Positions 3,362 through 63,373 of a stretch of 64,000 nt of DNA are shown here, piece after piece (position 1 is the stretch's first letter; each line of letters starts with the position of its first letter). The notes under the pieces are model-generated. The model saw only the letters and a list, made by a program, of their open reading frames with translations, was not told the DNA's origin and ran no database searches. Origin of the DNA: a virus. Taxonomy: Duplodnaviria > Heunggongvirae > Uroviricota > Caudoviricetes. Made by a program: the position numbers and the translations under genes. The stretch lies in IMG/VR virus record IMGVR_UViG_3300017971_007904; one strand, written 5' to 3'.

Positions 3362-3762
3362 TACTCAAAAAGAGATGCGTCATAGATGGGGAGGTCTGAA
3401 ACATCAGTAGACTCCTCTGGGGAGTCCTCTGGAGACTTCTCTGGCGGCTCCGGTCGCTTTGTATTAACGGTTTTGAGTTCCGAGAGGGCTTCCTTGTAGA
3501 TTCTGGCGATCTCTTGGTTCATCATTTCCACAGGAGACTCGTAACCGGCGATAAAAGCGTCTTCGAGCATCTTCTTCAATTTCTTCGGGGAGAGGATGTA
3601 CTGATCCATGGGTTGCTCCTTTTTAACCGGCAAGGTTTCTCTGGTGGTATCAGAGCTATAACAGCTAGAAGAAGTCGCAGAATAGTTGGAATAAGTTCCG
3701 TAATTGGAGTAAGGCGAGCCCAATGCAGAAGAAGTTGTGCTTATTGGAATATACTTAGGCAT
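3349..3762 (-). CDS. hypothetical protein (Ser/Tyr-rich N-terminus)
   Basis: 137-aa ORF overlapping its neighbours by a few nt in an operon-like arrangement. Confidence 0.45.
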   Translation of the reverse strand: MPKYIPISTTSSALGSPYSNYGTYSNYSATSSSCYSSDTTRETLPVKKEQPMDQYILSPKKLKKMLEDAFIAGYESPVEMMNQEIARIYKEALSELKTVNTKRPEPPEKSPEDSPEESTDVSDLPIYDASLFEYWSP

Positions 3763-5322: not shown

Positions 5323-5563
5323 TGTTTTCCTCGTTGTCTGTAAAGATGTTACATATCTCCTGCTTCCAGGCGGTGTCGACGGTGCCTAGGAACTCGCATA
5401 GGACGACGGAGGTACCGGACCACCAGAAAGCGATAGCTTCAGGCGCAGCCCAAGCAAGATTTTGCTTACTTTCTTCAAGTGCGGCTGCCAAGTCTTCTTG
5501 ATACTCGAAGTCGTCAGGGATGAGGGGAATGATTCGGTCGATCACGTTTTGTAGGTTTCGCAT
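5315..5563 (-). CDS. hypothetical small protein
   Basis: 82-aa ORF overlapping the hldE 3' end by 50 nt. Confidence 0.35.
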   Translation of the reverse strand: MRNLQNVIDRIIPLIPDDFEYQEDLAAALEESKQNLAWAAPEAIAFWWSGTSVVLCEFLGTVDTAWKQEICNIFTDNEENNE

Positions 5564-6989
5564 CTTTGATCTTTTCTATCGTTTTGGTTGTCGAAAAGTC
5601 CTCTAATAAAGGGCATATGATAACCTCATCCACGAGGTTACCCCCTATTACTTTATCGGCATGATAGTCCCCTCCCTTTACCAAAATCTCCATGGGAGAG
5701 AGATTTCTGATCAAATTGTACACATCACCATCGAAAGGTACGACAAAGTCAACATGCTGCATAGAAGCGATAAGCCGCATTCTTTCATCAAGTGACTTAA
5801 TCGGTTTATCTGCGCCTTTCAAACGTTTGACGTTAGCATCGCTATCGATACCAACGATTAAGATATCGCCTTGTGCCTTAGCAAACTCCAGAACCCTGAG
5901 ATGCCCTTGGTGAAGTAGATCGAAGCAACCGTTTGTAAAAACCTTGGTGCCTCGCAATGTATCAAGATGTGGACCTAACCACTTGGCGTTGTTGAAAATC
6001 TTCGCTTCTATCGGGTCAATATGAGCGTGTAGTTCCCAAGGTGTTACAGGGTCGGTGTGTTTCTTCTGGACAAAGATGGATGAGGCGTGATTGGCGATAA
6101 TGGCTGACTCTTGGAAGTCGAAGTTCAATGCGTATGCCATTGCATAAACCGCAGCAAAGCAATCCCCCGCTCCGCTGTAACCTAATGGGTGACCAACCAC
6201 TGGCTTGTCCGACTTGTATGAAAGGGGAGGTTTCTTAGGAAGGTACGTTTGGACACCATCTGCGCCTTGTGTGATAACTAGTGCCTCGCAACGCACCTCA
6301 CTGAGAATATCCTCGTTGTAACCATTGATAGTTCGGCAGAAGTCTTCTGCTTCTTTTGCATTAGGTTTGAAGATGGTACAGTTCAACCATTGATCTATAG
6401 GTTCCAACTTGGGATCAACTAGTGTGGGCACACCATACTCGCTGCATAGCTCGATCAGGTCTTGGGCCATAGTTTCGTAGAACAAACCTTTGCCATAGTC
6501 GCTGAGTATGATGATATCGGGGTCTGATCCATAGACATACTTCTCAAATTTCTCAACGAGTTGTTTGCGAGCTTTGATAAGTGGGGCCCACTCGGGATCA
6601 TAGGATTCGATATCCCATCGGCATAGCGGTAGGTCTTTGTCGAAGAACCGTCGCTTCCTAGGTGTTTGATAGCCAAATGTTATGAGGTCGCACTTGAATC
6701 CAAAATCATGCAAAAGGCTTGCGGCGTTCTTATCGGTGATACCGAACAGGGTACAATCGACGTTAAATCCCGCAAATTGATACGCCACATTCGCAGCCCC
6801 GCCCGGTAATGTCATGGTGGGTTCTTGCACTTCAGACGCCAGAACAGGTATGGGAAATTCTGGGCTAATACGATTTACTGCGACCTGATAGAATTGGTCA
6901 AGCAACACATCGCCAACGACGGCGATCTTGAGTTTTTCGTCCTCTTGAGTGTTAAGGAACTCGTGGATAAGCGAAGTGATATTTCTCAT
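5514..6989 (-). CDS. hldE: bifunctional D-beta-D-heptose 7-phosphate kinase / D-beta-D-heptose 1-phosphate adenylyltransferase (ADP-heptose synthase)
   Basis: N-terminal pfkB/ribokinase-like domain (LAVVGDVLLDQF...GAGDCF) plus C-terminal cytidylyltransferase motif (FTNGCFDLLHQGHLRVLEFAK); 491 aa, matching HldE/RfaE size. Confidence 0.85.
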   Translation of the reverse strand: MRNITSLIHEFLNTQEDEKLKIAVVGDVLLDQFYQVAVNRISPEFPIPVLASEVQEPTMTLPGGAANVAYQFAGFNVDCTLFGITDKNAASLLHDFGFKCDLITFGYQTPRKRRFFDKDLPLCRWDIESYDPEWAPLIKARKQLVEKFEKYVYGSDPDIIILSDYGKGLFYETMAQDLIELCSEYGVPTLVDPKLEPIDQWLNCTIFKPNAKEAEDFCRTINGYNEDILSEVRCEALVITQGADGVQTYLPKKPPLSYKSDKPVVGHPLGYSGAGDCFAAVYAMAYALNFDFQESAIIANHASSIFVQKKHTDPVTPWELHAHIDPIEAKIFNNAKWLGPHLDTLRGTKVFTNGCFDLLHQGHLRVLEFAKAQGDILIVGIDSDANVKRLKGADKPIKSLDERMRLIASMQHVDFVVPFDGDVYNLIRNLSPMEILVKGGDYHADKVIGGNLVDEVIICPLLEDFSTTKTIEKIKDAKPTKRDRPNHSPHP

Positions 6990-22664: not shown

Positions 22665-25193
22665 ATGAAGAAGTGTGAAACGTGTGGCCTAGAGCATTTG
22701 CATCGACACTCAGATTTCTCTCTCCTAGACGGGTTTGCTACCGTCGAGGAGTATGCGGCTTACTCCGAGGCCGCTAATCAGAAGTATCTGTGTATCAGCG
22801 ACCACGGTATGCTTGGTTGCATCCCCCGCCAGATTCGGGCTTGTGACGAGTACAATCTTCAGCCGGTATTTGCCTGTCTTACCGCTGGCCAGCCGATATA
22901 TCTAAAGGATGGAATCAAGCCAATCGAAGAGGTATTGGTTGGTGATCAGGTGTTGACCGATAAGGGTCGTTATCGCAAAGTACTACGAGTGATGAGTCGG
23001 CGGTATCAGGGAAGTCTTTATAAAGTCAAGTTGGCGAACCAAACTGGTAGAGCCTTGATGCAAACGCTAACAGGGGAGCATCCGATTCTCATAAGGAGCT
23101 ATAATGGTCAATATAGCTGGATACCAGTATCGCAAATATTGACAGGCCGTCCCACTACGAAGCGTGGACTTAAAAACCACAATTCGTATGTCTGTTATCC
23201 GCAGAGCAGATCGTCACGTTCTGTAACTTTGAAGATTAGTGACTATCTTCCTGATATTTTTGAATGCGGTGATACCATTGTTCGTACTGGTTGGAAAGGG
23301 GTAGCTGCTTATGAGTGGGAAATTCCACCTGAGTTTGAATTAGATGAGAATTTTGCATATTTCTTGGGCTTATATGTGGCGGAAGGCTCATCGACCACCA
23401 ATAAAAAAGGTTTGCCAAATGGAGCTATGAGGTTGTCATTACATGCCAAAGAGTCTCCTTTGGTGGAAAGGTGCCAACCTGCTGTTGAAGCATTTGGTAT
23501 CAAATTTCATTTGTATCCACGACCTGAGATCAATCGTTTAGATGTTCATTTTGGTTGTCTACCCTTATCTTACATCATTAGGCAACTGTGCGGTATTGGA
23601 TCGCATTGCAAAAAAGTACCCTCCCCAATCTTTCAAAGCTCACTTTCGGTGAAAAAGGCTTTTATGGAAGGTTTGATGGATGGCGATGGCAAAATTAGTG
23701 GTGTGCAAGATGTGTTGAGGGTAGCGTCAAAAGAGTTGGCGTGGGGTGTCAAGAGATTGTTATCCGATTTAGGGTATTGGTCTAATGTTGGGCTTTCTAA
23801 GGATGGTGACAAGGAGTGCTACCATCTCAGTTATTGTCCGGAACGAACATATGCTAGAAGTTTTGTCGAAGATGGCTCTGTAATGTCACCGGTTCAAGAC
23901 ATTGTTGAATTACGTGATCAAGATGTCATGGTATACAATTTAGAGGTAGAAGAGGACAACAGCTATGTCAGTTATTTCGCTGTACATAACTGTGAGTTGT
24001 ACGTCAACAACGCACAACCCATTTGCCGAGACCCAGAAGACTACGTCAAATACGTCGAAGAGAACTCTCCCGAGACGAAGGAGACCCTTCGTAAGTCCTA
24101 TCATCTACTGGCGATAGCTTACACGAATCAAGGTTACAGCAACCTCGTACAGCTTGCGTCGTGGGGCCACATTTATGGTTGGGGTGGCGTACCACGTCGA
24201 CCACGGATCACGCACGAGCAGTTGATGAAGCACAAAGAGGGCTTGATCTTTTCATCGTGTTGCTATCTCTCGGAGATTGGTCAAACCTTTGATCGGTACG
24301 GTCGAGATGCCGCTTTTGCCATGATCGAGAAGTACATGGCCATGTTTGGCGATAACTTCTATCTGGAGTTGATGCTCTTGGACTTCAAGAAGCAAAAGCC
24401 ATACGACCAGTTTCTTATTGAGGCTCATGACCGGTATCACATCCCTCTGAACATCACGCAGGATTGCCACTACTGCAAACAAGAGGATGCTAAGTACCAG
24501 CAGTATATGCTGATGATACGCACGAAGCACACGGTGGCTGACATTGAGGCGGCTATCGAACAGGGTGAGGCAAGGGAAGGTTTCTTTGAGTTACAGGATC
24601 AGCAACTTTGGATGAAAACTGAAGAGGAGTTGAACGAAAAGTGGAACGAAGATTACACCGACGCAATCCCGTATGAACTCTTTTGTCAGGCTAAGCATAA
24701 CACGGTCGAGATATGTCGGAAAGCCGAAGGAGTTGAGATCGACCGTACCATCAAGTTGCCCGAAATCGACGAGGCTGACGAGAAGCTCTGGGAGGGGCTT
24801 TGTAAAGGTTTCAAATGGCGAGGTTTGGAGGGTAAGGCTGACTATATGCAACGCTTGAGAGAGGAGTATGAGCTTATCTGCCGCAAAGACTTCTCCAGTT
24901 ACTTTCTCTTGACAAAGATGTTTACGGATGAGGGTCGTCGAGCGTGCCCCAAACTGATTGGTTGGGGAACTGGCGAAGAGGCAATTAGCCCTGGCCGAGG
25001 GTCGGGTGTGAGCTTCCTATCCAATTACGTCTTGGGTATTACGGATGTTGATCCAATCCGCCACGACTTAGTCCCAGAAAGGTTCCTCAGTGATGCACGG
25101 GGTGGTCGTCAACTGAAGCTACAGTTTGATAGTGAGCCGATTAGTACGGCTCATAGTCATCCGGAATCTCCCAATCATCCGGAATCGGAATGA
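22665..25193 (+). CDS. dnaE: DNA polymerase III alpha subunit (DnaE), N-terminal fragment (PHP domain through the GPGRGSG region), interrupted by an intein
   Basis: PHP motif LHRHSDFSLLDG; after the intein, SYFLLTKMF...SPGRGSGVSFLSNYVLGITDVDPIRHDLVPERFLSDAR aligns with E. coli DnaE ~residues 300-400; the last ~30 aa are non-homologous. Confidence 0.85.
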   Translation: MKKCETCGLEHLHRHSDFSLLDGFATVEEYAAYSEAANQKYLCISDHGMLGCIPRQIRACDEYNLQPVFACLTAGQPIYLKDGIKPIEEVLVGDQVLTDKGRYRKVLRVMSRRYQGSLYKVKLANQTGRALMQTLTGEHPILIRSYNGQYSWIPVSQILTGRPTTKRGLKNHNSYVCYPQSRSSRSVTLKISDYLPDIFECGDTIVRTGWKGVAAYEWEIPPEFELDENFAYFLGLYVAEGSSTTNKKGLPNGAMRLSLHAKESPLVERCQPAVEAFGIKFHLYPRPEINRLDVHFGCLPLSYIIRQLCGIGSHCKKVPSPIFQSSLSVKKAFMEGLMDGDGKISGVQDVLRVASKELAWGVKRLLSDLGYWSNVGLSKDGDKECYHLSYCPERTYARSFVEDGSVMSPVQDIVELRDQDVMVYNLEVEEDNSYVSYFAVHNCELYVNNAQPICRDPEDYVKYVEENSPETKETLRKSYHLLAIAYTNQGYSNLVQLASWGHIYGWGGVPRRPRITHEQLMKHKEGLIFSSCCYLSEIGQTFDRYGRDAAFAMIEKYMAMFGDNFYLELMLLDFKKQKPYDQFLIEAHDRYHIPLNITQDCHYCKQEDAKYQQYMLMIRTKHTVADIEAAIEQGEAREGFFELQDQQLWMKTEEELNEKWNEDYTDAIPYELFCQAKHNTVEICRKAEGVEIDRTIKLPEIDEADEKLWEGLCKGFKWRGLEGKADYMQRLREEYELICRKDFSSYFLLTKMFTDEGRRACPKLIGWGTGEEAISPGRGSGVSFLSNYVLGITDVDPIRHDLVPERFLSDARGGRQLKLQFDSEPISTAHSHPESPNHPESE
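22875..23990 (+). mobile_element. intein (372 aa) with LAGLIDADG homing-endonuclease domain inserted in the DnaE PHP domain
   Basis: N-splice block CLTAGQPIYL, block B TLTGEHPIL, LAGLIDADG-like FAYFLGLYVAEGS and FMEGLMDGDGKIS, C-terminal VYNLEVEE...FAVHN followed by extein Cys (CELYV). Confidence 0.8.
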
Positions 25194-27635: not shown

Positions 27636-27985
27636 GGGGGCGACAGGTATCGATTGGCTATGTCGATAACGGGTTGCCTGCCGTGGTTGGTCAGCAGGCC
27701 ACGTAAAAAGCCGACCACTAAACTTTAAGTGCCGAACCGGTACGAATGGCTGCTTAAGAGTAGCCCAGGCCAAGGAAGCCCGCCAGCGGCGTCCGGAAGC
27801 CTGCCGAAAATGTTGGCTGGATTCAGGTCATTGTCGACTACGCCTGGGTTGAGATCAGTTGTCATGACTAGCCGTTAGAACTTTGTTCGCCGAGGTCGAA
27901 TCGGTAAAACCAAAAGACGAACTATTGCAGGTAGACGCCTTTTTGAGACTAGTGCAACACAGCGGTTCGAGTCCGCTCGCCTCCA
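27636..27985 (+). ncRNA. ssrA: tmRNA (ssrA)
   Basis: 5' GGGGGCG pairs with 3' CGCCUCC as a 7-bp acceptor stem carrying the G3:U70 alanine identity pair; T-arm AGCGG-UUCGAGU-CCGCU; internal GGUUGG...CGUAAAAAGCCG closely matches E. coli tmRNA upstream of the tag ORF; candidate tag reading frame GCC GAA CCG GUA CGA AUG GCU GCU UAA (AEPVRMAA) at 27730-27756; discriminator A; CCA not fully encoded. Confidence 0.8.
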
Positions 27986-27994
27986 CTTTCTACA

Positions 27995-32299: not shown

Positions 32300-34936
32300 A
32301 TGACGAAGAAGGAACTGCTGAAGAAGTTATGCCTTGGGCGAATGAAGAAACTAGGCATACTTGATGCTGCGCACCTTGCTCGTCTCAAGAATGAACTTAT
32401 CGAGATCGAAGTTCAGGACCAATACGAGTATTTTCTAGGCCATTGTAAGAGTGGAACCCGCTGGGAACACAACGACCACAATCTGTTGGTTCCTTATCTC
32501 CTCAATCTATGTCCCGAGTTTGATATCACGAAGGAAACCGCCTTTACGATGGGTGAGTTTCCGGACATCGATGTGGACTATCTGGCTGTCGTGCGTGAGT
32601 ATCTGATGAACGAGTGGGCTCCAAAAAAGTTCGGAGCCGACAAGGTTTGCCATATTGGCACCTATTCCACGTACAACCTCAAACAGTCGCTAATCGACAT
32701 GGCTCGCATCTTTGGCGAGAGTAGAACTGAAGTGATGAATGTCACGACCCAGTTTGGTGCGAAGGATGACGAGGGTGATGCTTTGACCTGGGAAAAAGCC
32801 CTAACCATCTATCCGTCCTTTCGAGAGTACGTCAAGAACCACCCCGACGTGGCGGATGCCGCAAAGAAGATTTGTGGTCGGAATCGCAATATGGGCCAGC
32901 ATGCTGGTGGTTTCATTGTGTCTCGAACGCCCCTGACTGGTTTTGTACCATTGGTCCGAAACAAGAAGGATAACCAGCTTATGACGGCGTGGCCCGAGGG
33001 GCAGTCGGCGCAGGAGCTACAGGCGGTGGGCTTGGTAAAGCTGGACTTACTTTCGAGCAAGATGTCGACCCAGATCAAGGACTGTATTGGTTTGATTCGC
33101 CAGCGTCACGGCGAGGTGAAGATTTCGGCAAGAGAGGGGGGCTCGAATTGGTCGGATCATTCGTACTTGGACGATCCGAAGTGTATGGAAATGGCCAATA
33201 AGGGTGACTTACGATTCATCTTCCAATTTGATTCAGATGGTATCCGTCGTCTCGTTAGGACTGGTGGCGTCGATGGGTTTCAGGACTTAGAGGCATATTC
33301 GGCGTTATATCGTCCTGGGACCCTGAGCATGGGCATGCATGACGTGTACTGCAACCGGAAGAAAGGTAAGGAGGTATTCGACATACACCCTGTCTTGGAG
33401 CCGTATTTGCAAAAGACGTATGGTGTAGCAGTCTTCCAAGAGAGCGTGATGAAGGTTCTAAACAAGGCGGGCGGAATCCCGCTGCGGGATTGTATGGCGG
33501 TAATTAAGGCCATCAGCAAGAAGAAAATCGAGAAGTTTGCGAAGTACAAAGAGCTATTCATCCGGAACAGCCAGAGGATTCTGGGGATCAAGAAGGAGGC
33601 TGCCGGGCAGTTTTGGGAGCAGATTGAGGCGTTTGCTGGTTACGGGTTTAACAAGGCTCACTCTTGCGTCTATACGCATGTAAGCGCCCGACAGCTATAT
33701 CTGAAGTGTTACTATCCACTGGAGTACTATTGTAGTTATCTGAATCACATCAAAGGCGCAGACGCAAAGATGCGTGATTGTGTGCGGGATGCTGCTCGAC
33801 ACAATGTAACGGTTAACTCAATCGACATCAACAAGTCGGAAGAGCATTTTCAGATTGCGGATGACGATGAAATCTACTTCGGATTTGCCAACGTCAAGCA
33901 TGTGGGCGAGAAAGTGGCTACGAGGTTAGTAGAAGAGCGACGTAACGGCCCCTTTACGGACTTCCAGAACTTCCTAGATCGATTTGGGACGGATGCCAAG
34001 ATCATCCAGGCCCTTGTTTCTCTGGGGGCCTTTGAGGGTGATCCGGTTTGTCTCTACGAGTATTACGAGTACTACAAGGATTATCACACGAAGCAGACGC
34101 AGCGACGGAAGAGGTATGAGGTAGCACTTAAGAGGTACGAAGATCAATTCCATGAATTTGCCGGTCACAATTTCGCCTTTGGTACTGAGGAGCAGATTAC
34201 CTTCGCAATCGATAATATCGATGATGAGGAGGCTAAGGCAAAGCTTCGTCGCCTGCGTGGGAACTATCGCCGTACCTTGACGAACAATACAAACAACGAG
34301 CGGAACGATACAGGCCCTGTATCATTTGAAAATTTCGTTTCGCCAAAGAAATCTGCTATCAAAGAGGACCTTCGCAAGATTCTACAAGACAAGGCAGTAG
34401 CCGAAATTGAGTATTACGGTTTCACATGGTCCAGCCCGCTGGAAAGTTGCCCTAATCTCGAAGGGGACACGTTTGCGGAATACCGGTCTGCCCGTCTAGC
34501 TTTGGGCCCCGTGGAGGGAGCTATACAGGATGTGCGGGAGGTGAAGAGCCGAAAGGGTAATAAGTACTACGTTGTACAGCTTCTGGATGCTAACTGGGAA
34601 CTTGGGTTCGTCAATGTCTGGACGGCAGACATGGCTGAGTTTACCGATAAGTTGAAACCTGGGAATATTGTCCGCATGCGGCTTCAGGCTCCCAATCCTA
34701 AGTTTGCTTCTGAGCGGTACAGTCTGGAAAGCTACCCTCGGAAGCGACGGGGTATCACACGAGAACAGTCAAACGCTCGTGTTATGATACTACGTTCTCC
34801 GGATCAAGAGGTAAAGGTCGTGACCAATGAGCCCCCAATTACTCTTGATAAGGAAAGGGAAAAGAAATTGGAGGTAAAAGAGGATGTCGAAACAGCCGAA
34901 CTGTACCAAGACCTCGACAAACTCCTCGGCTTATGA
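32300..34936 (+). CDS. dnaE: DNA polymerase III alpha subunit (DnaE), C-terminal fragment (palm/fingers/thumb core)
   Basis: PDIDVDY, GQHAGGFIVSRTPL and FNKAHSCVYTHVSARQLYLKCYYPLEYY catalytic-core motifs; its N-terminal ~80 aa re-encode the helical region (ARLKNELIEIEVQDQYEYFL) also present at the end of the N-fragment. Confidence 0.88.
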   Translation: MTKKELLKKLCLGRMKKLGILDAAHLARLKNELIEIEVQDQYEYFLGHCKSGTRWEHNDHNLLVPYLLNLCPEFDITKETAFTMGEFPDIDVDYLAVVREYLMNEWAPKKFGADKVCHIGTYSTYNLKQSLIDMARIFGESRTEVMNVTTQFGAKDDEGDALTWEKALTIYPSFREYVKNHPDVADAAKKICGRNRNMGQHAGGFIVSRTPLTGFVPLVRNKKDNQLMTAWPEGQSAQELQAVGLVKLDLLSSKMSTQIKDCIGLIRQRHGEVKISAREGGSNWSDHSYLDDPKCMEMANKGDLRFIFQFDSDGIRRLVRTGGVDGFQDLEAYSALYRPGTLSMGMHDVYCNRKKGKEVFDIHPVLEPYLQKTYGVAVFQESVMKVLNKAGGIPLRDCMAVIKAISKKKIEKFAKYKELFIRNSQRILGIKKEAAGQFWEQIEAFAGYGFNKAHSCVYTHVSARQLYLKCYYPLEYYCSYLNHIKGADAKMRDCVRDAARHNVTVNSIDINKSEEHFQIADDDEIYFGFANVKHVGEKVATRLVEERRNGPFTDFQNFLDRFGTDAKIIQALVSLGAFEGDPVCLYEYYEYYKDYHTKQTQRRKRYEVALKRYEDQFHEFAGHNFAFGTEEQITFAIDNIDDEEAKAKLRRLRGNYRRTLTNNTNNERNDTGPVSFENFVSPKKSAIKEDLRKILQDKAVAEIEYYGFTWSSPLESCPNLEGDTFAEYRSARLALGPVEGAIQDVREVKSRKGNKYYVVQLLDANWELGFVNVWTADMAEFTDKLKPGNIVRMRLQAPNPKFASERYSLESYPRKRRGITREQSNARVMILRSPDQEVKVVTNEPPITLDKEREKKLEVKEDVETAELYQDLDKLLGL

Positions 34937-46273: not shown

Positions 46274-46849
46274 ATGCCTGGCTCATTACCCTTCGTTAAA
46301 GCTGAGATGCAGAGACTGTATGAGAAATACCTAGGAAGTGATCTTGTGCAAAGACGGCGTTTAGGCGACAATAACTTAGACGATGATGAGTCGTTAGCTA
46401 AAGCTGGAGCATCTACCATGAACGAAGATACAAGACAGAAAGATATCGTCGACATACAGGAATCACTTGAGATTCAAGCGATTCCTGGTAGGACGTATCT
46501 GTGCGTTGTGGTTTTGGACTCTCCCAAAGAGGGTCAGAGGCGTATGCACAAAGTGCGGCATGTTCGGTGTTATCACGGTTCGGCTTTCACTCAAGGCTAT
46601 CCCTACGATCAGAATAGCGACTCATATCTAATCAACTGCGTAGAGGCTCTACACATAGGCCACATTTCACTTGCATTTCAAGTGGCCGTGCCTGATACGG
46701 AATGGAAAGTGACGATTCCCGTGCCGCCATCTGTTGTGGATCGCCACCTGTCCGATTCTCAGAAAGCAGAACTCAAAATGATACGAGACAGGTATAAGGA
46801 CGACCGGTTTCAACTTAAGATGGTACAAATGTCGGGGTGTGAGTGCTAA
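46274..46849 (+). CDS. hypothetical protein
   Basis: 191 aa. Confidence 0.5.
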   Translation: MPGSLPFVKAEMQRLYEKYLGSDLVQRRRLGDNNLDDDESLAKAGASTMNEDTRQKDIVDIQESLEIQAIPGRTYLCVVVLDSPKEGQRRMHKVRHVRCYHGSAFTQGYPYDQNSDSYLINCVEALHIGHISLAFQVAVPDTEWKVTIPVPPSVVDRHLSDSQKAELKMIRDRYKDDRFQLKMVQMSGCEC

Positions 46850-47415
46850 CAATGGCTGCTATCGATAAGAAAGAACGAAGGCTGCAAGCTAGAATAACGC
46901 CTGCGAAGGAAGAGTACTTCATGGGCGTTTTGTTCATGCTATCCGCCATATGCAAGGACCCACATGGCCAGGAAGCGGCCCTATTGATCGATAACAAGGA
47001 TCGGCTAATCACCTTTGGAGTCAACCATATCTCACAGCCCGCAGGTTACCAGAACAGAAAGCTCAGTTGGGACCCCGAGGATCGGTACCTTGGGATGACC
47101 GCTTCCGGCGACTCAGCAATGGATCGGGCTTTGAAATTGTATGTCCCAGCGTCGACGATGTGCGAACCGTTTACAAGCCACACGATGTATCTGACTGGAC
47201 CGCCGACTTTGCGGTTGGTTAACCGAGCGGCGGCGAATGGTCTCAAGAATTTCATATATGGGCCACTAAGGTCTCAGATGTTTGACGAAGACGATTGGAA
47301 GCAGGCGGTCGAGCTTGCCAAAGTACACGACATGACACTGAAGGAGTTTAATGGGAATTTAGGTTGGTTGCGTGATCGCACGAAAGCCCTATCTGAGACA
47401 TTCCGTTTATTCTAA
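46843..47415 (+). CDS. dCMP-deaminase-fold protein with degenerate zinc/catalytic motifs
   Basis: KEEYFMGVLFMLSAICKDPHGQEAALLIDNKDRLITFGVNH parallels the dCMP deaminase N-terminal core (EYFMxVAxLSAxRSKDPxxQVGAxIVxxxNKIVGIGYNG), but the HAE and PCxxC positions read GMTASGD / PASTMCEP. Confidence 0.45.
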   Translation: MLTMAAIDKKERRLQARITPAKEEYFMGVLFMLSAICKDPHGQEAALLIDNKDRLITFGVNHISQPAGYQNRKLSWDPEDRYLGMTASGDSAMDRALKLYVPASTMCEPFTSHTMYLTGPPTLRLVNRAAANGLKNFIYGPLRSQMFDEDDWKQAVELAKVHDMTLKEFNGNLGWLRDRTKALSETFRLF

Positions 47416-48270: not shown

Positions 48271-49893
48271 ATGCCTAGTGTAGCGCAGTTCCTAATGGAG
48301 CGACTCGATCCATTAGTAGATTCAATCTTCGGTATTCCAGGCGACTACATCCTAAATTTCTACAACCAAATAGACCAGAAATTCGATGTGATCAATACCA
48401 CGGATGAGCAATGCGCCGGGTTTGCGGCGGATGCTTATGCACGAGTCCACGGCTTTGGCGTGGTATGTGTCACCTATTGTGTTGGCGGCTTTAAGTTACT
48501 CAACTCAGTAGCGTGCGCCTACGCTGAAAAGTCGCCAGTCTTGATTATCAGTGGTGCCCCTGGCGTAAAGGAGAGGCATGCTGGGTTACTACTCCATCAT
48601 GCTGCTGGGCCGTATGAGTGCCAACGACGTGTCTTCGAGCACGTCACCTGCGCAAGCGCTATCCTCGATGACCCAACATGGGCTGGTCACGAGATTGACC
48701 GTGTCATTGATGCGATACAGCACTTCAAGCAGCCCGGCTACTTGGAGATACCTAGGGACATGGTCGACAAGAACGTCAAGTACGATGTGTACGCTCAGGG
48801 TACGCCACAGTCCTTCGTGGGAGACCCGGAGAATCTCCAAGAGGCTCTCGAAAAGTCCATCGAGTGGATCAGCAACAGCGAAAAGCCGGTGATCCTCGCT
48901 GGTGTTGAACTCGCCCGTTTCGATCTGGGTTCAGAGTTGATTAAGTTCGCAGAGCGAACTAACATTCCTGTGGCCACGACAATTCTCGGCAAGTCAGTTG
49001 TCAGCGAGTACCACCCGCTCTGCCTCGGTGTGTACGGCGGAACGATGAGTCGTGATGTGGTACGGGAAATGGTCGAGACCTCCGATTGCGTTCTACAGTT
49101 GGGCGTGATGCAAACCGACATGAACTTGGGCTTCCGACCCTTCCAATGCAATCAAACCAACGTGATCATGGCGAACACGGATCGAGTTCGTATTCGTCGG
49201 AGTACCTACGAGAACGTTGCCTTCTTGGAGTTCGTTAACAGCCTTCTCAAGTCCGAAGTCGAACCGAAGGTCTCGGTGAAGGTTCCCCGAAAGCAAGTCA
49301 CTAAGTTTGTTCCGCAAAATTCGCCGATCACTGCGGAGCGGTTGTTCGAGAAGATCGATTCGATCCTCGACACCAACACAGCTATCATCGCTGATGTCGG
49401 CGACAGTTTGTTCGGCGCAACGGACCTGACCGTCCGCCACCACAACCACTTTCTGGCCCCGGCGTTCTACACCAGTATGGGCAATGCCGTGCCCGGAGCC
49501 CTCGGCGTCCAGACGGCCATCCCTGATGTTCGTCCAGTCGTCATCGTCGGCGATGGGGCGTTCCAGATGACTGGTATGGAAATATCGACCATTGTGCGGC
49601 GAGGTTTGAACCCCATTATCATTGTCCTCAACAATGACGGGTATGGGACAGAGCGATGCCTGGGCAATGATGGCCAATACAATGACCTACAGCGGTGGGA
49701 TTACCACCGGGTCACAGAAGTCGTAGGTGGTGGTAACGGTTTTCTTGTTGAAAATGAGCGAGAGTTGGATGCGGCGATGACCGAAGCTTTAGCAGATAAA
49801 AAATCGGTCTCGATCCTCAACGTCGTTATTGATAGGATGGACGTTACGCCAGCCCTGAAACGAATGACAGCCAATTTGAAAGATAGAGTATAG
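48271..49893 (+). CDS. thiamine-diphosphate-dependent 2-keto-acid decarboxylase (indolepyruvate/pyruvate decarboxylase family)
   Basis: N-terminal PYR domain GIPGDYILNF...; C-terminal TPP-binding motif GDGAFQMTGMEISTIVRRGLNPIIIVLNNDGYG; 540 aa. Confidence 0.85.
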   Translation: MPSVAQFLMERLDPLVDSIFGIPGDYILNFYNQIDQKFDVINTTDEQCAGFAADAYARVHGFGVVCVTYCVGGFKLLNSVACAYAEKSPVLIISGAPGVKERHAGLLLHHAAGPYECQRRVFEHVTCASAILDDPTWAGHEIDRVIDAIQHFKQPGYLEIPRDMVDKNVKYDVYAQGTPQSFVGDPENLQEALEKSIEWISNSEKPVILAGVELARFDLGSELIKFAERTNIPVATTILGKSVVSEYHPLCLGVYGGTMSRDVVREMVETSDCVLQLGVMQTDMNLGFRPFQCNQTNVIMANTDRVRIRRSTYENVAFLEFVNSLLKSEVEPKVSVKVPRKQVTKFVPQNSPITAERLFEKIDSILDTNTAIIADVGDSLFGATDLTVRHHNHFLAPAFYTSMGNAVPGALGVQTAIPDVRPVVIVGDGAFQMTGMEISTIVRRGLNPIIIVLNNDGYGTERCLGNDGQYNDLQRWDYHRVTEVVGGGNGFLVENERELDAAMTEALADKKSVSILNVVIDRMDVTPALKRMTANLKDRV

Positions 49894-52350: not shown

Positions 52351-52743
52351 ATGAAGAAGATACATTACCTGATATTTGGGTGGGTGAGTTTCCTGCTACT
52401 ATATGCCGCAGCATTGGGTTGGTATGTGCGGTATTGGTCTCAGTCGCCCCAAACCCAGCTACCAACAGCGAGTGTCTTACTGTTGGAAGAAGTGTCACCC
52501 GCCTCCTACCAGAATCTTGCCCTGGATGTTTTCCTCTTTCCAGAGGTGAAGCCATTGATCGAGATGGCGATGGAAGATGATAAAGTGACTATGTTGGAAC
52601 TGCATTACATTTACAGTAGTTGGGAGTGGTGGCTAAGTTACGAATCGCCTAATCCCCTCGTCCGAAAATGGGTCGAGCGCAAGGGTGAGGCGACGAAATT
52701 GTACAAACGAGAGTTGAGAGAAGCCTTAAAGGAGGCAAGATGA
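52351..52743 (+). CDS. hypothetical membrane-anchored protein
   Basis: N-terminal TM helix; ATGA overlap with the downstream gene. Confidence 0.5.
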   Translation: MKKIHYLIFGWVSFLLLYAAALGWYVRYWSQSPQTQLPTASVLLLEEVSPASYQNLALDVFLFPEVKPLIEMAMEDDKVTMLELHYIYSSWEWWLSYESPNPLVRKWVERKGEATKLYKRELREALKEAR

Positions 52744-53633
52744 AAACCATTGGTGTTGTTGGTTGTGGGTTTGTGGGTACGGCGGTTGCCAAGGGTATGT
52801 GTCATGCATTTCAGGTATATGGTGTAGACAAGAAGGACCCTGGCTTGTTAAAGAAGTGGTGTGGCTTAGACGACCACGTAGTTTCAGCAGGGGGAAACGA
52901 TTCGTTAGAGGAACTTATCGAGAGGGTGGATGGACCCATCTTCATTTGTGTGCCGACGCCGATGAGACCTAATGGTAGTTGTGACACTACCATTGTGCAG
53001 TCGGTGATATCTGGTATCGACTCTTTAGCTCTTGTGGCGAAACGTCAGATTGTGGTAGTAATCAAATCGACGGTACCGCCCGGCACAACAGATCGTTTGA
53101 ATGGGCAGTTTCACCATGTACATGTGTGCTTCAATCCTGAGTTCTTAAGGGAGGCTACGGCGGTGGAGGACTTCAAGAACCAAGATAGAATCATTCTAGG
53201 TGGCCCTCGTTCTGGTACGAACATCTTGAAGCAAATGTACCAACATGCGTATCCCGATGTTCCCACCACGAAGACACACTCGACAATCGCAGAGATGGTC
53301 AAATATGTGACCAACTGCTTTCTCGCCACAAAAGTGAGTTTCGCTAATGAGGTTTACCAGTTGTGCGAGGCTCTGGAGATCGATTATGACAAGGTCGTAG
53401 AGTATGCAACTAAGGATAAGCGGCTTGGCATATCGCACTGGGCGGTGCCAGGACCTGATGGGCATTACGGTTTTGGTCTAACGTGCTTCCCTAAGGATTT
53501 GAATGCACTCATGTACAAGGCCGGGGAGTTGGGTGTGGAACCGACAATCATGCAAGCTGCTTGGCGTAAGAATTTGGAAGTTCGACCAGAAAAGGATTGG
53601 GAGCAGATGAAGGGCCGTGCTGTTAGCGAATAG
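52740..53633 (+). CDS. UDP-glucose/GDP-mannose dehydrogenase-family protein, short form (paralog of 31437..32234)
   Basis: MKTIGVVGCGFVGTAVA Rossmann fold; VIKSTVPPGTTDRL; FNPEFLREATAVEDF...RIILGG; 297 aa, no C-terminal UDP-binding domain. Confidence 0.7.
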   Translation: MKTIGVVGCGFVGTAVAKGMCHAFQVYGVDKKDPGLLKKWCGLDDHVVSAGGNDSLEELIERVDGPIFICVPTPMRPNGSCDTTIVQSVISGIDSLALVAKRQIVVVIKSTVPPGTTDRLNGQFHHVHVCFNPEFLREATAVEDFKNQDRIILGGPRSGTNILKQMYQHAYPDVPTTKTHSTIAEMVKYVTNCFLATKVSFANEVYQLCEALEIDYDKVVEYATKDKRLGISHWAVPGPDGHYGFGLTCFPKDLNALMYKAGELGVEPTIMQAAWRKNLEVRPEKDWEQMKGRAVSE

Positions 53634-53641
53634 GAGGTTGC

Positions 53642-54127
53642 ATGGATTTTGAATCATTTCGGATCAAGAAGGATAAATTGGCGGTCAAATCGCATGAGGA
53701 GTACATGGGAATTGCGATAACTGCGGCTAAGGCTGCCAAGTCGAAAGGATTTGCGCCTATCGGTGCGTGTTTAGCTTTCACCAGTAGCCACCTAAGTGAG
53801 CACTCTACTGGCGATGTGCTGCGAACCGCTGGTATCAACGTCATTCGGAAGGCGATGGATATGTTGCCATACAAAGTGCCTAATAGTGTTTTGTATTGTA
53901 CCGTGGAGCCTGACGCTCTTACGGCGCTGGCGGCATACAAAAGTGGTATCAATGAGATTGTATTTGGTGCATTCGACCCCAAGAATGGGTTTGTTAGTTC
54001 TACTTCAAGGAATCTAAATCCCGAACTTTGCGCCATAAAGCAACGGGGTGGCGTTCTAGCGAATGAGTGCTGTGAGCTTTTATCTGAAGATATGAGGGAA
54101 TATTGTGAGACCGACCCCCAAACCTAA
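53642..54127 (+). CDS. TadA/cytidine-deaminase-fold protein with degenerate active site (predicted catalytically inactive)
   Basis: Aligns with TadA (HEEYMGIAITAAK..PIGACLAF; LYCTVEPDALTALAAYKSGINEIVFGAFDPKNG; LANECCELLSE), but PCxxC reads PDALT and HAE reads HST. Confidence 0.55.
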   Translation: MDFESFRIKKDKLAVKSHEEYMGIAITAAKAAKSKGFAPIGACLAFTSSHLSEHSTGDVLRTAGINVIRKAMDMLPYKVPNSVLYCTVEPDALTALAAYKSGINEIVFGAFDPKNGFVSSTSRNLNPELCAIKQRGGVLANECCELLSEDMREYCETDPQT

Positions 54128-54410
54128 GCGTGTGCATTGCACCGAAAAGGACATTCTATTGGCTCTAAGGGAAGCCTTCGAGGCGGGGCTGTCCAGTCCT
54201 TATGAATTGAAGTCACAAGAGGTCAATAGGATTTACAAGAAGTTGGCCGAGTCGCCTAAACCACGACCTCCTAAGGTCAAACCGTCCATCTGTCCAAATT
54301 GTTCTTCCTCTAATCTTGAGCACATGGTAGAATCGTGTGGTTTTGTTGGGCCTATTTACACCACAAAATGCAAGGACTGTTGGTATCGGTCATTTGGATC
54401 GGGGGTTTGA
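54105..54410 (+). CDS. hypothetical protein with C-terminal Cys pairs
   Basis: GTG start with GAGGGA SD; CPNC...CKDC. Confidence 0.4.
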   Translation: MRPTPKPKRVHCTEKDILLALREAFEAGLSSPYELKSQEVNRIYKKLAESPKPRPPKVKPSICPNCSSSNLEHMVESCGFVGPIYTTKCKDCWYRSFGSGV

Positions 54411-54412
54411 AC

Positions 54413-55501
54413 ATGGCACAAGACTACTACGAAACTCTTGGTCTCAAAAAAAACGCCTCGCCCGACGAGATTAGCGATGCTTACCGTGAGATGGCAAAGC
54501 TATATCACCCGGATCGCAACCCTGGTGACGAAGAGTCGGTGAAACGGTTCAAAGCTTGCGCTGAAGCTTTCGAGGTCCTGAGCGATCCCGTGAGGCGACG
54601 GGAGTTCGATCAGTATGGTAAGGTCGGGGGTGGACCGTCCATTCATATTAACCCATTCGATGTTTTCAACAACATCTTTGGCGATCCATTTGGCGACCGT
54701 CCCCGAAAAGGCGCAGATATTCATAGAGAGGTTCGGCTCTCACTTAAAGAGGCGTTCACCGGTTGCAAGCGAACGATTACCTCATGTGCTCACGTCAACT
54801 GCGAGCCGTGCGCCGGTACCGGGGTTTCAAAATGGGATTCTTGTCCGACATGTGGAGGTGAAGGTCAGGTTGTTACCCAAAGAGGGCCGATTTCTATCGC
54901 CGTTACCTGCACCCGTTGCCAGGGTAGAGGAGAGCTTCCTGTTGTCAAGTGTGAAGAATGCGGCGGCGAAGGTCGCATAGCTTGTAATGAGAAGGAACAC
55001 GAAATCAATCTTCCCCCTGGAATTGATACCGGCGTCAGTGTGAAGTTGCCAGGAAAGGGAGAGGTTTCTCAGAGCGGTTATGCAGGTGACCTGTATTGCA
55101 CCGTGTATGTAGACCCTGATGACCTCTTTGAGCGAGATGGTCCCGATCTATTCTGTGCGGTACCCATAACCTACGCCCAGGCTATTCTCGGCCACAAGAT
55201 GAAATTGCCATTGCTTTCGGGAAATCAATGTACTGTTAAGATTCCGCCCGGCACCCGATCTGGACAACTCCTGCGCATTGCCGGGATGGGAATGCCAACG
55301 ACGGTCGACCGGATGCGCAAGAAAAAGCCCTTTGGAGACTTGATAGTTCGTGTCGACATACAAATCCCCACCGAGCCTAGCAAAAAATATCTGGATTTGG
55401 TTAAGAAATTGGCTGATTTAGACGATAACGAATCATATGGGAGGATTCTGTCGTTTGAATCCTGTGTTGACAAATGCCGAGCTTTAGAAAAAGGAGCCTA
55501 A
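54413..55501 (+). CDS. dnaJ: DnaJ (Hsp40) co-chaperone
   Basis: J domain with HPD motif (DYYETLGL...LYHPDRNPGD); four CxxCxGxG zinc-finger repeats; C-terminal substrate-binding domains; start at ATG 54413 with GGGGGT SD. Confidence 0.88.
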   Translation: MAQDYYETLGLKKNASPDEISDAYREMAKLYHPDRNPGDEESVKRFKACAEAFEVLSDPVRRREFDQYGKVGGGPSIHINPFDVFNNIFGDPFGDRPRKGADIHREVRLSLKEAFTGCKRTITSCAHVNCEPCAGTGVSKWDSCPTCGGEGQVVTQRGPISIAVTCTRCQGRGELPVVKCEECGGEGRIACNEKEHEINLPPGIDTGVSVKLPGKGEVSQSGYAGDLYCTVYVDPDDLFERDGPDLFCAVPITYAQAILGHKMKLPLLSGNQCTVKIPPGTRSGQLLRIAGMGMPTTVDRMRKKKPFGDLIVRVDIQIPTEPSKKYLDLVKKLADLDDNESYGRILSFESCVDKCRALEKGA

Positions 55502-57460: not shown

Positions 57461-58198
57461 ATGACAACAGTATACAATCCTTTAGAGGGAGATCGTGCCG
57501 AACTAAGTATCGATGTGGCCGAACAGGGTTCTGAAGAGCGAATCTCGATCATCATCATACACAAAGATCGACCAGAGTACTTAAACATCTGCCTCCAGAC
57601 CATTACAGTTACCAGTCTTAATAACAACTATGAGTTAATTGTGGTCGATAATGGTTCGGGTCAAAGAACTCAAGACTTCCTCACTGAACTAGAGGAAGAT
57701 GGTGTTAAGGTCATCCGGAATGATGAGAATGTTTGGTGGGCCGAGGCTGCGAATCAAGGGGTAAAAGCCGCTAGTAAGAACTCGAAGTACCTCGTATTCC
57801 TCCACCACGATATCAACGTGACTAATCCAGCGTGGCTTGATCTCATGATCAATGTATCAGAGGCTACAAAGTCTGGGCTCGTGGGAATGAATCTGCGACG
57901 TTACGAGTTGAATAACCAGTTTATTCCGTTTGTTGACGAGAGTTGTATGATGGTTAGTCGAGAGTGTTGGAATGATGTTGGTCCCTTTGTTGAAGATTTC
58001 AAACAAGAGGGGGCACCGTTTTTCTTTACATTCAAAGCCAACAAGTTGGGTTACAACCCTCAGGCAATCGATCAGAAGCACACGCCGTGTGTACATCATT
58101 TTCGTATCTTCGCTTTGGATTATAGTGATTACGAAAGGTTCTGTGAGAAGGCCCGAATTACCCTCCCGCAACACATTGGTGAATTGCAAAAGGTATGA
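57461..58198 (+). CDS. family-2 glycosyltransferase (GT-A fold)
   Basis: ISIIIIHKDRPEYLNICLQTI...YELIVVDNGSG and a DxD-like region; 245 aa. Confidence 0.75.
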   Translation: MTTVYNPLEGDRAELSIDVAEQGSEERISIIIIHKDRPEYLNICLQTITVTSLNNNYELIVVDNGSGQRTQDFLTELEEDGVKVIRNDENVWWAEAANQGVKAASKNSKYLVFLHHDINVTNPAWLDLMINVSEATKSGLVGMNLRRYELNNQFIPFVDESCMMVSRECWNDVGPFVEDFKQEGAPFFFTFKANKLGYNPQAIDQKHTPCVHHFRIFALDYSDYERFCEKARITLPQHIGELQKV

Positions 58199-61914: not shown

Positions 61915-62442
61915 GTGTCTAAATACCACATGCGATGCTTCAAGGAGTCTAGCTGGGACGAACTTTACCAAAGTGCTGTGGATGCATTTCCACGTACTAC
62001 GATGCGACAACATGCGACCGATCCGATTGATATCACCAACTTGACGGTTGTTCCATTTCTCGGGTTCAAGACATTGTTTCTGCGCTCTAGGGCTTTGAAT
62101 GAAGATCGTGAATACTCGCCAATCGTACTCGTGAAAGGTGTTATTTATCGAGAGGATCGGCAGCCCGGTGTGATAGAAATTGAGGCGTCAGACGGGGAGA
62201 CTTATCTATTTGATCGCTTGTCGTTGGCAGACCATGACGTTTTACTGCGGTGTAATTGTCCCGACTTCTATTGGCGGTTCAATTATTACGACCACTTGGA
62301 TCACTCATTGTACGGACGGAAGCGAGCGTCCTATACAGCGACGGTGAACCCAGGATCGGCCAATCCTCTTCATATGCCTGGGGCCTGCAAACACATCATG
62401 AAGATGATGCAAGTTCTATTTAACAGTGGCATTTTTAGGTAA
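61915..62442 (+). CDS. SWIM zinc-finger-containing protein
   Basis: CNCPDF ... CKHI matches the SWIM CxCxnCxH pattern. Confidence 0.5.
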   Translation: MSKYHMRCFKESSWDELYQSAVDAFPRTTMRQHATDPIDITNLTVVPFLGFKTLFLRSRALNEDREYSPIVLVKGVIYREDRQPGVIEIEASDGETYLFDRLSLADHDVLLRCNCPDFYWRFNYYDHLDHSLYGRKRASYTATVNPGSANPLHMPGACKHIMKMMQVLFNSGIFR

Positions 62443-63373
62443 CCAAATTGACCATTTCATCTAAAAGGGACTCGAAGGTATAATCGGCTTTCCAACCTAG
62501 TACGGATTTCGCCTTGTTGGCATCCCCTTTGATACGTTGCGATTTCTTGGGCGGATCGGGTGTTACATACTGTTCATAATTGATGTCGAGTTTCTGGAAC
62601 ACGTACCTACACATATCTTCGATGGTATGTTCGTCCCCGGATGCAAGAACAAAGTCATCTGGTTCCTTGTGGTGCATTATAAGATGTATTGCACGAACAT
62701 AGTCTTTAGTGTGTCCCCAGTCTCTATACTCATTCACGTTAGGTAACTTGAGGTTTGATTGCTTACCCGCCTTGATTGCTTTGGCTGCCCTTATCACTTG
62801 TACGGTAATAGAACTGGGGTTGCTACGGGGGCTTTCGTGATCAAAGATGATACCGTTAACCGCAAATATTTTGTGCGACATACGGTAGTTCCGAACCATA
62901 TGGTATCCAAATAGCTTTGAACAACCATATGGTGTGACGGGATTCATTCTGGTAGCTTCCCTTTGATAACCATCTTCATCCGTTTCAATGCCAAACATCT
63001 CTGCTGAGGCCGTGTTATAGAACTTACAATAGGGTGCATTCAATCTACATGCCTCTAATATGTTCACGGTGCCTAGGATATTCGCTTTGGTTGTCATCAT
63101 CGGCCAATGGTTATTTGGCCGTACTGAGGCGAGGTGGTACACCTCGTCGGGCTGTATCGAGCGAATGAATCTTTCAACACCACTCGCATCGGTGATATCT
63201 CCATACTCCACGTCGATTGCGTCTTCTATGTGCCTTAGCCGTGAAGGGTGGTGGTCCGCCAGGGAGTTTTTGCGGGCTAGACCATGCACCTTGTAGTTTT
63301 TTTTCAGCAGATGTTCTGCGAGATAACTTCCGTCTTGACCGCAGATACCCGTGATAATAGCAGTTTTCTTCAT
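62435..63373 (-). CDS. gmd: GDP-mannose 4,6-dehydratase
   Basis: MKKTAIITGICGQDGSYLAEHLLKKNYKVHG, PDEVYHLA, YGCSKLFGY, NGIIFDHESPRSN, RDWGHTKDY closely track E. coli Gmd. Confidence 0.9.
   Translation of the reverse strand: MKKTAIITGICGQDGSYLAEHLLKKNYKVHGLARKNSLADHHPSRLRHIEDAIDVEYGDITDASGVERFIRSIQPDEVYHLASVRPNNHWPMMTTKANILGTVNILEACRLNAPYCKFYNTASAEMFGIETDEDGYQREATRMNPVTPYGCSKLFGYHMVRNYRMSHKIFAVNGIIFDHESPRSNPSSITVQVIRAAKAIKAGKQSNLKLPNVNEYRDWGHTKDYVRAIHLIMHHKEPDDFVLASGDEHTIEDMCRYVFQKLDINYEQYVTPDPPKKSQRIKGDANKAKSVLGWKADYTFESLLDEMVNLVT

Follow-up and report, generated by a model that had tools for sequence, protein, structure and literature searches.

A phage-restricted family of TadA-derived proteins with recurrent loss of catalytic residues includes a zinc-less pseudo-deaminase under purifying selection

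Results

The TadA-fold gene and its product

The DNA analyzed is a 64,000-nucleotide stretch of a Caudoviricetes virus (IMG/VR record IMGVR_UViG_3300017971_007904), referred to here as the window. The gene under study lies at 53642..54127 and encodes a protein (the target) related to the tRNA adenosine deaminase TadA. The gene and the positions discussed in the text are listed below; the main dead clade is the principal group of inactivated relatives within the family described later, and dN/dS is the ratio of nonsynonymous to synonymous substitution rates.

53642..54127, + strand: TadA-fold pseudo-deaminase gene, 161 amino acids, zinc-less and without the catalytic Glu (evidence: open reading frame (ORF), Shine-Dalgarno (SD) sequence, homology, structural model, dN/dS)
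53642..53689, + strand: N-terminal helix, residues 1-16, family-specific (F3, F/Y6 and K10 conserved), absent from canonical TadA
53801..53803, + strand: H54 codon, clade-specific (8/9 of the main dead clade)
53825..53833, + strand: T62-A63-G64 codons, in the column of TadA H57-A58-E59; zinc-binding His and catalytic Glu replaced
53909..53923, + strand: P90-D91-A92-L93-T94 codons, in the column of TadA P86-C87-V-M-C90; both zinc-binding Cys replaced
54068..54070, + strand: C143 codon, clade-specific (10/10 of the main dead clade)
54104..54106, + strand: C155 codon in the C-terminal motif E-Y-C, clade-specific (10/10 of the main dead clade); C-terminal model confidence about 57

An AGGAGG SD sequence at 53632-53637 overlaps the stop codon of the gene 5' of the ORF and is separated from the ATG by a spacer of 4 nt. 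The identical protein was found in JGI, Logan and ENA assemblies, the longest contig being 297,696 bp.

A preliminary description of this locus, made from the sequence alone, had proposed that the protein aligns along its length with TadA. This was borne out by several lines of evidence. Searches of the Protein Data Bank (PDB) with phmmer gave full-length matches to 7cph (E 1.8e-12) and 1z3a (E 9.8e-11). The NCBIfam TadA model matched at E 1.2e-13 and 51.2 bits, short of the TadA equivalog cut-off (NF008113, 150 bits). In the Pfam comparison, MafB19-deam (PF14437) scored 29.3 bits, above its gathering score of 27, and PF00383 scored 24.2 bits, just under its gathering score of 25. No family for the protein was present in PHROGs, PADLOC gave no match, and no close relative was found among the BFVD viral structures.

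An AlphaFold2 model computed as a single chain from 20 family sequences was confident (predicted local distance difference test (pLDDT) 89; predicted template modelling score 0.84). All of the best 30 Foldseek matches to this model in the PDB were bacterial TadA or TadA-derived base-editor domains (template modelling (TM) score 0.65-0.77); the top matches were TadA at 0.75-0.77, and ADAT2 and ADAT3 chains ranked next. The model has a deaminase fold of the helix-4 division, with two helices after strand 5, a strand at 133-136, and an N-terminal helix at residues 3-11 (pLDDT 67-77). The predicted assignment to the TadA fold is thus sound.

Replacement of the zinc ligands and the catalytic Glu

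Motif columns were assigned from four HMMER pairwise and two MAFFT alignments, one of the latter using E. coli TadA as a ruler. HAE fell opposite T62-A63-G64 in all six. The preliminary description had instead read the HAE position as H54-S55-T56, which is the wrong column: this segment forms strand 2 and lies opposite W45-N46-R47 of E. coli TadA ('HN' in B. subtilis). Its reading of PCxxC as P90-D91-A-L-T94 was confirmed, with E89 preceding this segment in the column of the TadA EPCxMC motif. The proposed loss of both zinc-binding Cys and of the catalytic Glu was also upheld, and is fuller than had been claimed, the zinc-binding His being gone too. As judged from these alignments, replacements have occurred at each of the three zinc-ligand positions and at the catalytic Glu.

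No intact motif was found elsewhere in the protein. A search for CxxC across all 161 amino acids was negative, and H18-E19-E20, the sole literal HxE, was rejected as an active site as it aligns with E. coli H8-E9-Y10 in helix 1. The earlier view that the protein is a non-catalytic pseudo-enzyme is supported by the fold together with the missing catalytic apparatus.

A phage-restricted family derived from TadA

The main omission from the preliminary description was that the protein belongs to a phage-only family with many independent losses of catalytic residues. This family comprises 38 sequences; a word-indexed search had given 22 relatives. Profile searching of 1.84 billion cluster representatives returned 24 at 126 bits or more, separated by a gap from canonical TadA at 119 bits or less, and further loci, carried by viral contigs of 31-214 kb, came from scans of IMG/VR and metagenomes. 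Only one match, at 27% identity, was obtained when 185,579 species genomes were scanned. Nine matches of about 30% identity were obtained by tblastn against 50,697 deposited phages, and all were rejected as family members; those annotated were genes for a tRNA-specific adenosine-34 deaminase, located at the termini of records of E. coli phages.

The family was monophyletic with respect to canonical TadA in 100% of bootstraps. Its signature consists of the N-terminal helix (F3, F/Y6, K10), 'NV.RK' right after the HAE column, a 'GFVSS' loop, 'GGVLA.EC', and the residues G102 and E105 in place of TadA R98 and R101. Scores against the TadA equivalog model were 57-85 bits for motif-intact members, 91 for member P0017 and 45-51 for dead members, compared with 214 for the canonical control P0048. 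Among 20 family members, PF14437 and PF00383 matched 20/20 and 19/20, respectively, and PF14439 matched 7/20. The proteins are acidic, with a core isoelectric point of about 5.2-5.4 and a net-negative C-terminal helix. The family is TadA-derived and phage-restricted, and is not an orthodox TadA.

Recurrent inactivation across the family

The 38 members were classified by the state of the zinc-binding His, the catalytic Glu and the two zinc-binding Cys (H/E/C/C).

All H/E/C/C kept, 11/38: P0012-16, 19, 25, 27, 29, 34, 38
H/C/C kept and Glu lost, the pattern of ADAT3, 9/38: P0017, 18, 28, 32, 33, 37, 39, 40, 41
Zinc ligands lost and Glu kept, 5/38: P0010, 11, 26, 31, 36
Mixed (H, I, N, C), 1/38: P0030
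All four lost, 12/38: the target, P0002-P0009, P0020, P0024, P0035

Altogether, zinc ligands were lost in 18 of the 38 members, and different lineages have lost different subsets of residues. Of the nine members with the ADAT3 pattern, five have V in place of Glu; the others have V as part of 'HEV', or C, A or M. Further loci showed RAI with PCAMC (L012) and YAV with PNLLC (L010 and L018), and two others were intact (L009, L014).

Losses were counted, on the assumption of irreversibility, on neighbor-joining trees built without the four motif columns (100 bootstraps). On these trees, loss of Glu occurred a minimum of 8 times (median 12) and loss of the zinc site a minimum of 3 times (median 5); such counts are inflated by tree noise, the alignment having 155 columns, and the minima are regarded as robust. 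For example, P0017 (HAV) was nested with P0016 and P0013 (both HAE) with 79% bootstrap support and 64% identity.

Selection on the dead clade

Substitution rates were consistent with constraint. By the NG86 method, dN/dS was 0.13 for P0002 versus P0003 (dN 0.20, dS 1.55; 0.145 by YN00) and 0.17-0.18 for the target versus either of these (dS about 2.1, saturated). At least 12 full-length orthologues of 43-57% identity carried neither frameshifts nor stops. Between the window and the related locus L004, the target was 54% identical, inside the 45-78% range of its syntenic neighbors (orf479 45%, the second degenerate deaminase deam2 56%, translation initiation factor IF3 64%, UDP-glucose dehydrogenase 71%, the thiamine-pyrophosphate enzyme 74%, orf294 78%). 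The dead clade is under purifying selection, and the target is a maintained protein and not a decaying gene.

The residues that stand in for the zinc ligands are in turn conserved within the dead clade (T62 92%, D91 8/10, S/T94 8/10). Residues that are near the cleft or specific to the family and still conserved in dead members include T56, A63, N66, K70, E89, P90, D112, G116, F117 and S119. Most other family members carry L, V or T at position 155 and G, C or Y at position 54. The clade-specific H54, C143 and C155 might make up a substitute site for a metal or a disulfide, or might plug the protein at its C terminus, as the C-terminal Cys does in yeast ADAT3.

Residues that contact tRNA in TadA

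Contacts of E. coli TadA with the anticodon loop of tRNA-Arg are made by K110, R153, R74, R98, D108, F148, R26 and R152 (PMC10586758). Kept in the target are K114, K78 and D112. The others are changed (R98 to G102, R153 to C155, F148 to D150, R26 to G36 and R152 to Y154), and these five are replaced family-wide, motif-intact members included. Of the documented contacts, the family as a whole keeps D108 only, and the clade of the target tends to have Lys at the positions of E. coli K110 and R74. Searches for tRNA genes in the window and six related loci yielded none, and Rfam returned only the transfer-messenger RNA (tmRNA) listed below.

The preliminary description had further suggested that the protein binds tRNA, protects tRNA, or acts as a decoy or inhibitor against deaminase-based defenses. 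None of these suggestions found support: most of the tRNA contacts are missing and the family is acidic, no tRNA gene was found in the window or the related loci, and PADLOC gave no match.

Two other deaminase-fold genes in the window

46843..47415, + strand: second degenerate deaminase (deam2), dCMP-deaminase-like; HAE replaced by TAS and PCxxC (PCSEC) by PTLRL
3755..4345, - strand: intact dCMP deaminase; HAE118, PCHEC146; PF00383 68.9 bits; phrog_174 E 3e-32

Both genes had been noted in the preliminary description, and both assignments held. The intact dCMP deaminase is encoded on the minus strand. The deam2 protein had no Pfam or NCBIfam match and lacks the HAE and PCxxC motifs of dCMP deaminases; its degenerate dCMP-deaminase-like nature was established by BLASTP, motif columns and a structural model. 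It matched the protein at L008:2037-2597, in which PF00383, VHAECNA and PCSEC are intact, by BLASTP (E 5e-27). Its model (pLDDT 70) best matched the human, PBCV-1, S. mutans and T4 dCMP deaminases (2w4l, 7fh4, 2hvw and 1vq2; target-normalized TM scores 0.56-0.75). Relatives lie at L004:267-836, L008:2037-2597 and L012:371-901, and the family has a C-terminal 'GNLxWLRDR' extension. Three homologues of deam2 are also dead, and together with the window they read TAS, TAA, TAC or SAI in the first motif and PTLRL, PCLRV, PSLRA or PMLRD in the second.

The window phage and L004 each have dead forms of both the TadA-like protein and deam2, and L008 has intact forms of both. Joint decay of the two, which would imply a complex, was rejected as a general rule: L012 and L018 pair a degenerate TadA-like protein with an intact deam2, so the two decays were separate events and do not reflect obligate co-evolution. 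Since an intact dCMP deaminase coexists at 3755..4345 (-), the dead deam2 paralogue could be a regulatory or structural subunit of hexameric dCMP deaminase.

Genomic setting

The source of the window is a huge phage. Its DnaE-type polymerase is closest (40% identity) to that of the 595-kb uncultured huge phage LR756511.1, and the window carries several phage-only PHROGs as well as IF3, DnaJ, PhoH and many nucleotide-sugar genes.

22665..25193, + strand: DnaE-type DNA polymerase III alpha, first piece (phrog_405 positions 112-439)
27636..27988, + strand: tmRNA (Rfam RF00023, 95.6 bits; ARAGORN tag peptide AEPVRMAA*)
32300..34936, + strand: DnaE-type DNA polymerase III alpha, second piece (phrog_405 positions 441-1103), about 7 kb from the first
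48271..49893, + strand: thiamine-pyrophosphate enzyme with acetolactate-synthase-like architecture, syntenic in L004 and L008
49985..50431, + strand: IF3, syntenic in related phages (L004, L008)
52740..53633, + strand: UDP-glucose/GDP-mannose dehydrogenase-family gene (Pfam), immediately 5' of the target gene, its stop overlapping the target SD; same order in L004
54105..54410, + strand: small ORF of 101 amino acids with a C-terminal CxxC...CxxC zinc-ribbon-like segment, overlapping the pseudo-deaminase stop by 23 nt
54410..55501, + strand: phage DnaJ with J domain, CXXCXGXG zinc finger and C-terminal domain (Pfam)
5514..6989 (-), 52740..53633 (+), 57461..58198 (+) and 62435..63373 (-): nucleotide-sugar genes

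In every locus with enough flanking sequence, a conserved block was present in the order sugar genes, TadA-like gene, zero to two small ORFs, DnaJ, GT2 glycosyltransferase and PhoH. The genes at these loci are positional orthologues, and the target corresponds by position to enzymes of sister phages whose motifs are intact. DnaJ is the downstream neighbor of the TadA-like gene in every related locus (synteny in L001, L002, L005, L006 and L008), and the full-length DnaJ is likewise syntenic in L004 and L008.

The 101-amino-acid ORF between the target gene and DnaJ is conserved in the dead clade, with BLASTP matches to a 109-amino-acid ORF in L020 (E 7e-13) and to L004 (E 2e-8), and had no match in Pfam or PADLOC. 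It has a conserved N-terminal 'A-F-x-A-G-x-x-S-P-Y-E-L' and a zinc-ribbon-like CPNC...CKDC segment at the C terminus. Its product is a possible partner protein.

The nucleotide-sugar set includes a heptose kinase/adenylyltransferase-like protein, the UDP-glucose dehydrogenase family member, a GT2 glycosyltransferase and an epimerase, and the regions upstream in relatives L005 and L006 add a DegT aminotransferase, a cupin isomerase and an NTP-transferase. This dense gene set suggests glycan or DNA-glycosylation chemistry. Several other features of these loci were recorded. Residues 228-378 of the first DnaE piece also match the endonuclease family phrog_4645, an Amidoligase_2 gene comes a little further on in L001, and in L006 and L007 the TadA-like gene and DnaJ have a free-standing LAGLIDADG_2 gene between them. 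PhoH is split by intein or LAGLIDADG homing-endonuclease domains (Hom_end_hint, LAGLIDADG_3) at L006:16162-19140 and L008:18464-20531.

IF3, tmRNA and tRNA-modification genes have been reported in huge phages (Al-Shayeb et al. 2020, PMC7162821); the word 'deaminase' occurs nowhere in that paper.

Discussion

The protein encoded at 53642..54127 is very probably a non-catalytic pseudo-deaminase maintained by selection. Inactivation recurs in many lineages of its family and the gene is always kept, which argues that the retained function is independent of catalysis and was present in the ancestor. We infer that the family ancestor already possessed such an activity and that selection preserves it. 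Through the inactivations, the scaffold and the family motifs have stayed invariant: the N-terminal helix, N66 and K70 in what was the catalytic helix, E89-P90, the loop G116-F-V-S-S120 and 'GGVLA.EC'. Conservation persists on the surfaces of the former substrate cleft, its loop and the neighboring zone in which TadA monomers contact each other.

The most likely mechanism would be stoichiometric binding, in which what was the substrate cleft, together with the dimer surface, would hold the nucleic-acid or nucleotide ligand of the family without turnover. Such a protein would resemble a substrate-trapping deaminase mutant, or those tRNA-modification enzymes for which acting as a chaperone matters more than catalysis. 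Its action would be part of a phage module taking over host translation and proteostasis, IF3, tmRNA and DnaJ being encoded nearby. The combined statement of a selected pseudo-deaminase with a binding mechanism falls somewhat short of an even chance, and the specific version, a homodimeric binder of a ligand or RNA, is more tentative still.

Several observations weigh against a binding role. Any ligand is hypothetical. Most of the TadA residues that grip the tRNA-Arg anticodon loop are gone, and an acidic family with a net-negative C-terminal helix is unlike a classic RNA binder, charge and isoelectric point being uninformative, and slightly unfavorable, as a sign of RNA binding. No tRNA gene or obvious RNA partner was present in the sequence examined (the window and the related loci). 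A protein-protein interface could account for the conserved residues just as well. ADAT3 mutants without zinc are insoluble (PMC7713142), and zinc-free folding of the target is predicted from the confident model and from selection only. The dN/dS figures also rest on near-saturated dS.

The main rival to a stoichiometric binder is a partner role like that of ADAT3/Tad3, in which the dead protein would heterodimerize with an active TadA-fold enzyme, either the host TadA or a phage enzyme encoded outside the window. The 'monomer B' half of a composite site would then come from the dead subunit, which would thereby redirect, broaden or dampen wobble adenosine-to-inosine editing during infection. 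TadA-fold enzymes are indeed obligate dimers with an active site built from both subunits (PMC10586758; PMC8216470), and repeated loss of its own active site would be expected of a subunit whose site is dispensable in a heterodimer. Nine family members bear exactly the ADAT3 signature, Glu changed to V (or I, A, M or C) with H/C/C retained, and ADAT2/ADAT3 chains are among the Foldseek matches. At the positions of E. coli R98 and R101 the family invariably has G102 and E105, R98 being the contact made in trans by monomer B with the tRNA loop; the same substitution also counts the other way, as this trans RNA-contact residue is Gly in the target. Against the model, no second TadA-like gene was found by a six-frame hidden Markov model scan of the 64-kb window or in the 10-kb flanks of eight related loci; this search covered the window and flanks, with about 234 kb of the phage genome and the host TadA outside it. 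No contig carried two family loci, as judged by contig names in the IMG/VR and metagenome scans, and the intact members are single-copy genes at this very position, which makes a homodimeric ancestor probable. The zinc site that ADAT3 retains, and its large tRNA-binding domain at the N terminus, are both missing from the target. Simple poisoning of the host TadA would moreover harm the phage, 58% of whose Arg codons are CGU, CGC or CGA. A partner role of this kind is unlikely. Its most specific form, a viral counterpart of ADAT3 whose zinc-less subunit pairs with the essential TadA of the host and reprograms wobble inosine editing during infection, is decidedly improbable.

Recruitment of the scaffold to a function with no link to nucleic acids, as a structural or regulatory partner of the zinc-ribbon ORF product or DnaJ or as a component of a nucleotide-sugar pathway, is also rather improbable. 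It accords with the adjacency of DnaJ in all loci, the translational coupling of the downstream ORF, the acidic surface, and the near-invariance of C155, H54 and C143 in the main dead clade, from which a new metal or disulfide site is conceivable. Gene order alone is weak evidence in phages, however; the small ORFs between the TadA-like gene and DnaJ vary among clades, and the C terminus carrying C155 is modelled at low confidence. Inactive mimics and sponges directed against defense systems occur in phages, and the target could similarly mimic a deaminase effector or toxin, forming an inactive hetero-oligomer with the effector or occupying its substrate, or could shield tRNA anticodon loops from host anticodon nucleases. 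Its phage restriction and fairly fast evolution (54% identity, against 71-74% for neighboring enzymes) fit this account, as does the weak resemblance of the motif-intact P0016 to an anti-phage dCTP deaminase core (PADLOC E 2e-10 over 49 residues; also in NCBIfam). That likeness, however, reflects only the generic HAE..PCxxC core, and PADLOC did not match the target itself. The genomic position is within a conserved block of metabolic and chaperone genes and not in a variable anti-defense island, motif-intact orthologues in the same position are hard to square with a purely decoy origin, and the tRNA contact residues are missing. An anti-defense role is given little probability.

Continued enzymatic activity, by deamination or another reaction at a non-canonical site (metal-independent, or built on new His and Cys residues), appears very improbable. 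The replacement residues T62, D91 and S/T94 are conserved and H54 and C155 are clade-specific, but the catalytic-Glu column holds G, S, T or P, with no consensus among them, and the differing losses among lineages look like decay of a site and not its redesign. To our knowledge, no zinc-independent deaminase of the cytidine deaminase (CDA) fold is known. Finally, a decaying gene or an assembly or annotation artefact might be suspected from the loss of all catalytic residues, the lack of a PHROG match and the borderline Pfam scores. This explanation retains almost no probability and is effectively refuted by the identical protein in independent assemblies, the full-length orthologues, the low dN/dS, the confident model and the strong SD sequence.

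Selected pseudo-deaminases have precedents, from which the target differs in several respects. It shares with TadA (E. coli 1Z3A, S. aureus 2B3J, B. subtilis 7CPH) the fold, the order of secondary structure elements, 27-33% identity, TM scores of 0.75-0.8 and the scaffold motifs 'LY.T.EP', 'VVFGA.D', 'G.L..EC..LL' and D108 (D112 in the target). It differs in lacking the zinc ligands and the catalytic Glu, in the replacement of the tRNA contacts R98, R153, F148 and R26, in being phage-encoded, and in having the extra N-terminal helix, 'NV.RK' after the former HAE and a 'GFVSS' loop in place of 'GAAGS'. ADAT3/Tad3 (7BV5, 7NZ7), the partner of ADAT2, is likewise a TadA-derived pseudo-deaminase kept by selection. 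It keeps H/C/C, however, and needs zinc for stability (PMC7713142), whereas the target is zinc-less; it has an N-terminal tRNA-binding domain of about 150 amino acids where the target has a 16-amino-acid helix only; and it has a catalytic paralogue within its own genome, whereas none was found for the target in the window or in the flanks of its relatives.

The C-terminal domain of the E. coli-type CDA is a 'broken' deaminase domain without zinc. Domains of this type, like the target, are CDA-fold modules that lack the zinc ligands, and they are kept by pairing with and completing an active module. They are fused to that active domain in the same chain and belong to the C-terminal-hairpin division, whereas the target is free-standing, belongs to the helix-4 (TadA) division and has no identified active partner. 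The Bd3614-like branch (PF14439; Iyer et al. 2011, PMC3239186) resembles the family in the 'HAExN' of helix 2, of which N66 is family-invariant, and in the M of CxMC. The target nevertheless has no PF14439 match and has lost HAE, N66 being the only survivor. Bd3614-like proteins have a distinct globular domain at the N terminus but lack strand 5; the target lacks such a domain and has the strand at 133-136.

Inactive deaminase-fold proteins were already known, namely ADAT3, ADAD1/2 and inactive CDA domains (PMC3239186), including the C-terminal domain of plant CDA, listed as inactive in Table 1 of Iyer et al. 2011 (PMC3239186). In the searchable literature we found neither a zinc-less TadA-fold protein that is free-standing nor any phage-encoded one described. 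What is new is a free-standing TadA-fold protein without a zinc site that is under purifying selection, and a phage-restricted, TadA-derived family that provides a natural series of independent inactivations among positional orthologues.

The series from intact, through Glu lost, to zinc site lost can show what the fold does when it does not deaminate and how a zinc-free version is stabilized. Mutagenesis of ADAT3 never gave a zinc-less protein, and the phage family offers a natural one. As TadA is the chassis of adenine base editors, a stable zinc-free scaffold together with the substrate loops of this family may interest protein engineers. If the protein were a viral counterpart of ADAT3, the repeated E-to-V and zinc-site losses would record the dispensability of the viral subunit's active site, and a previously unknown viral retuning of host decoding would be revealed, affecting which tRNAs are edited or how much. 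More generally, if it acts on host tRNA editing or on the stability of tRNA or RNA, it would add a new layer to the takeover of translation by huge phages.

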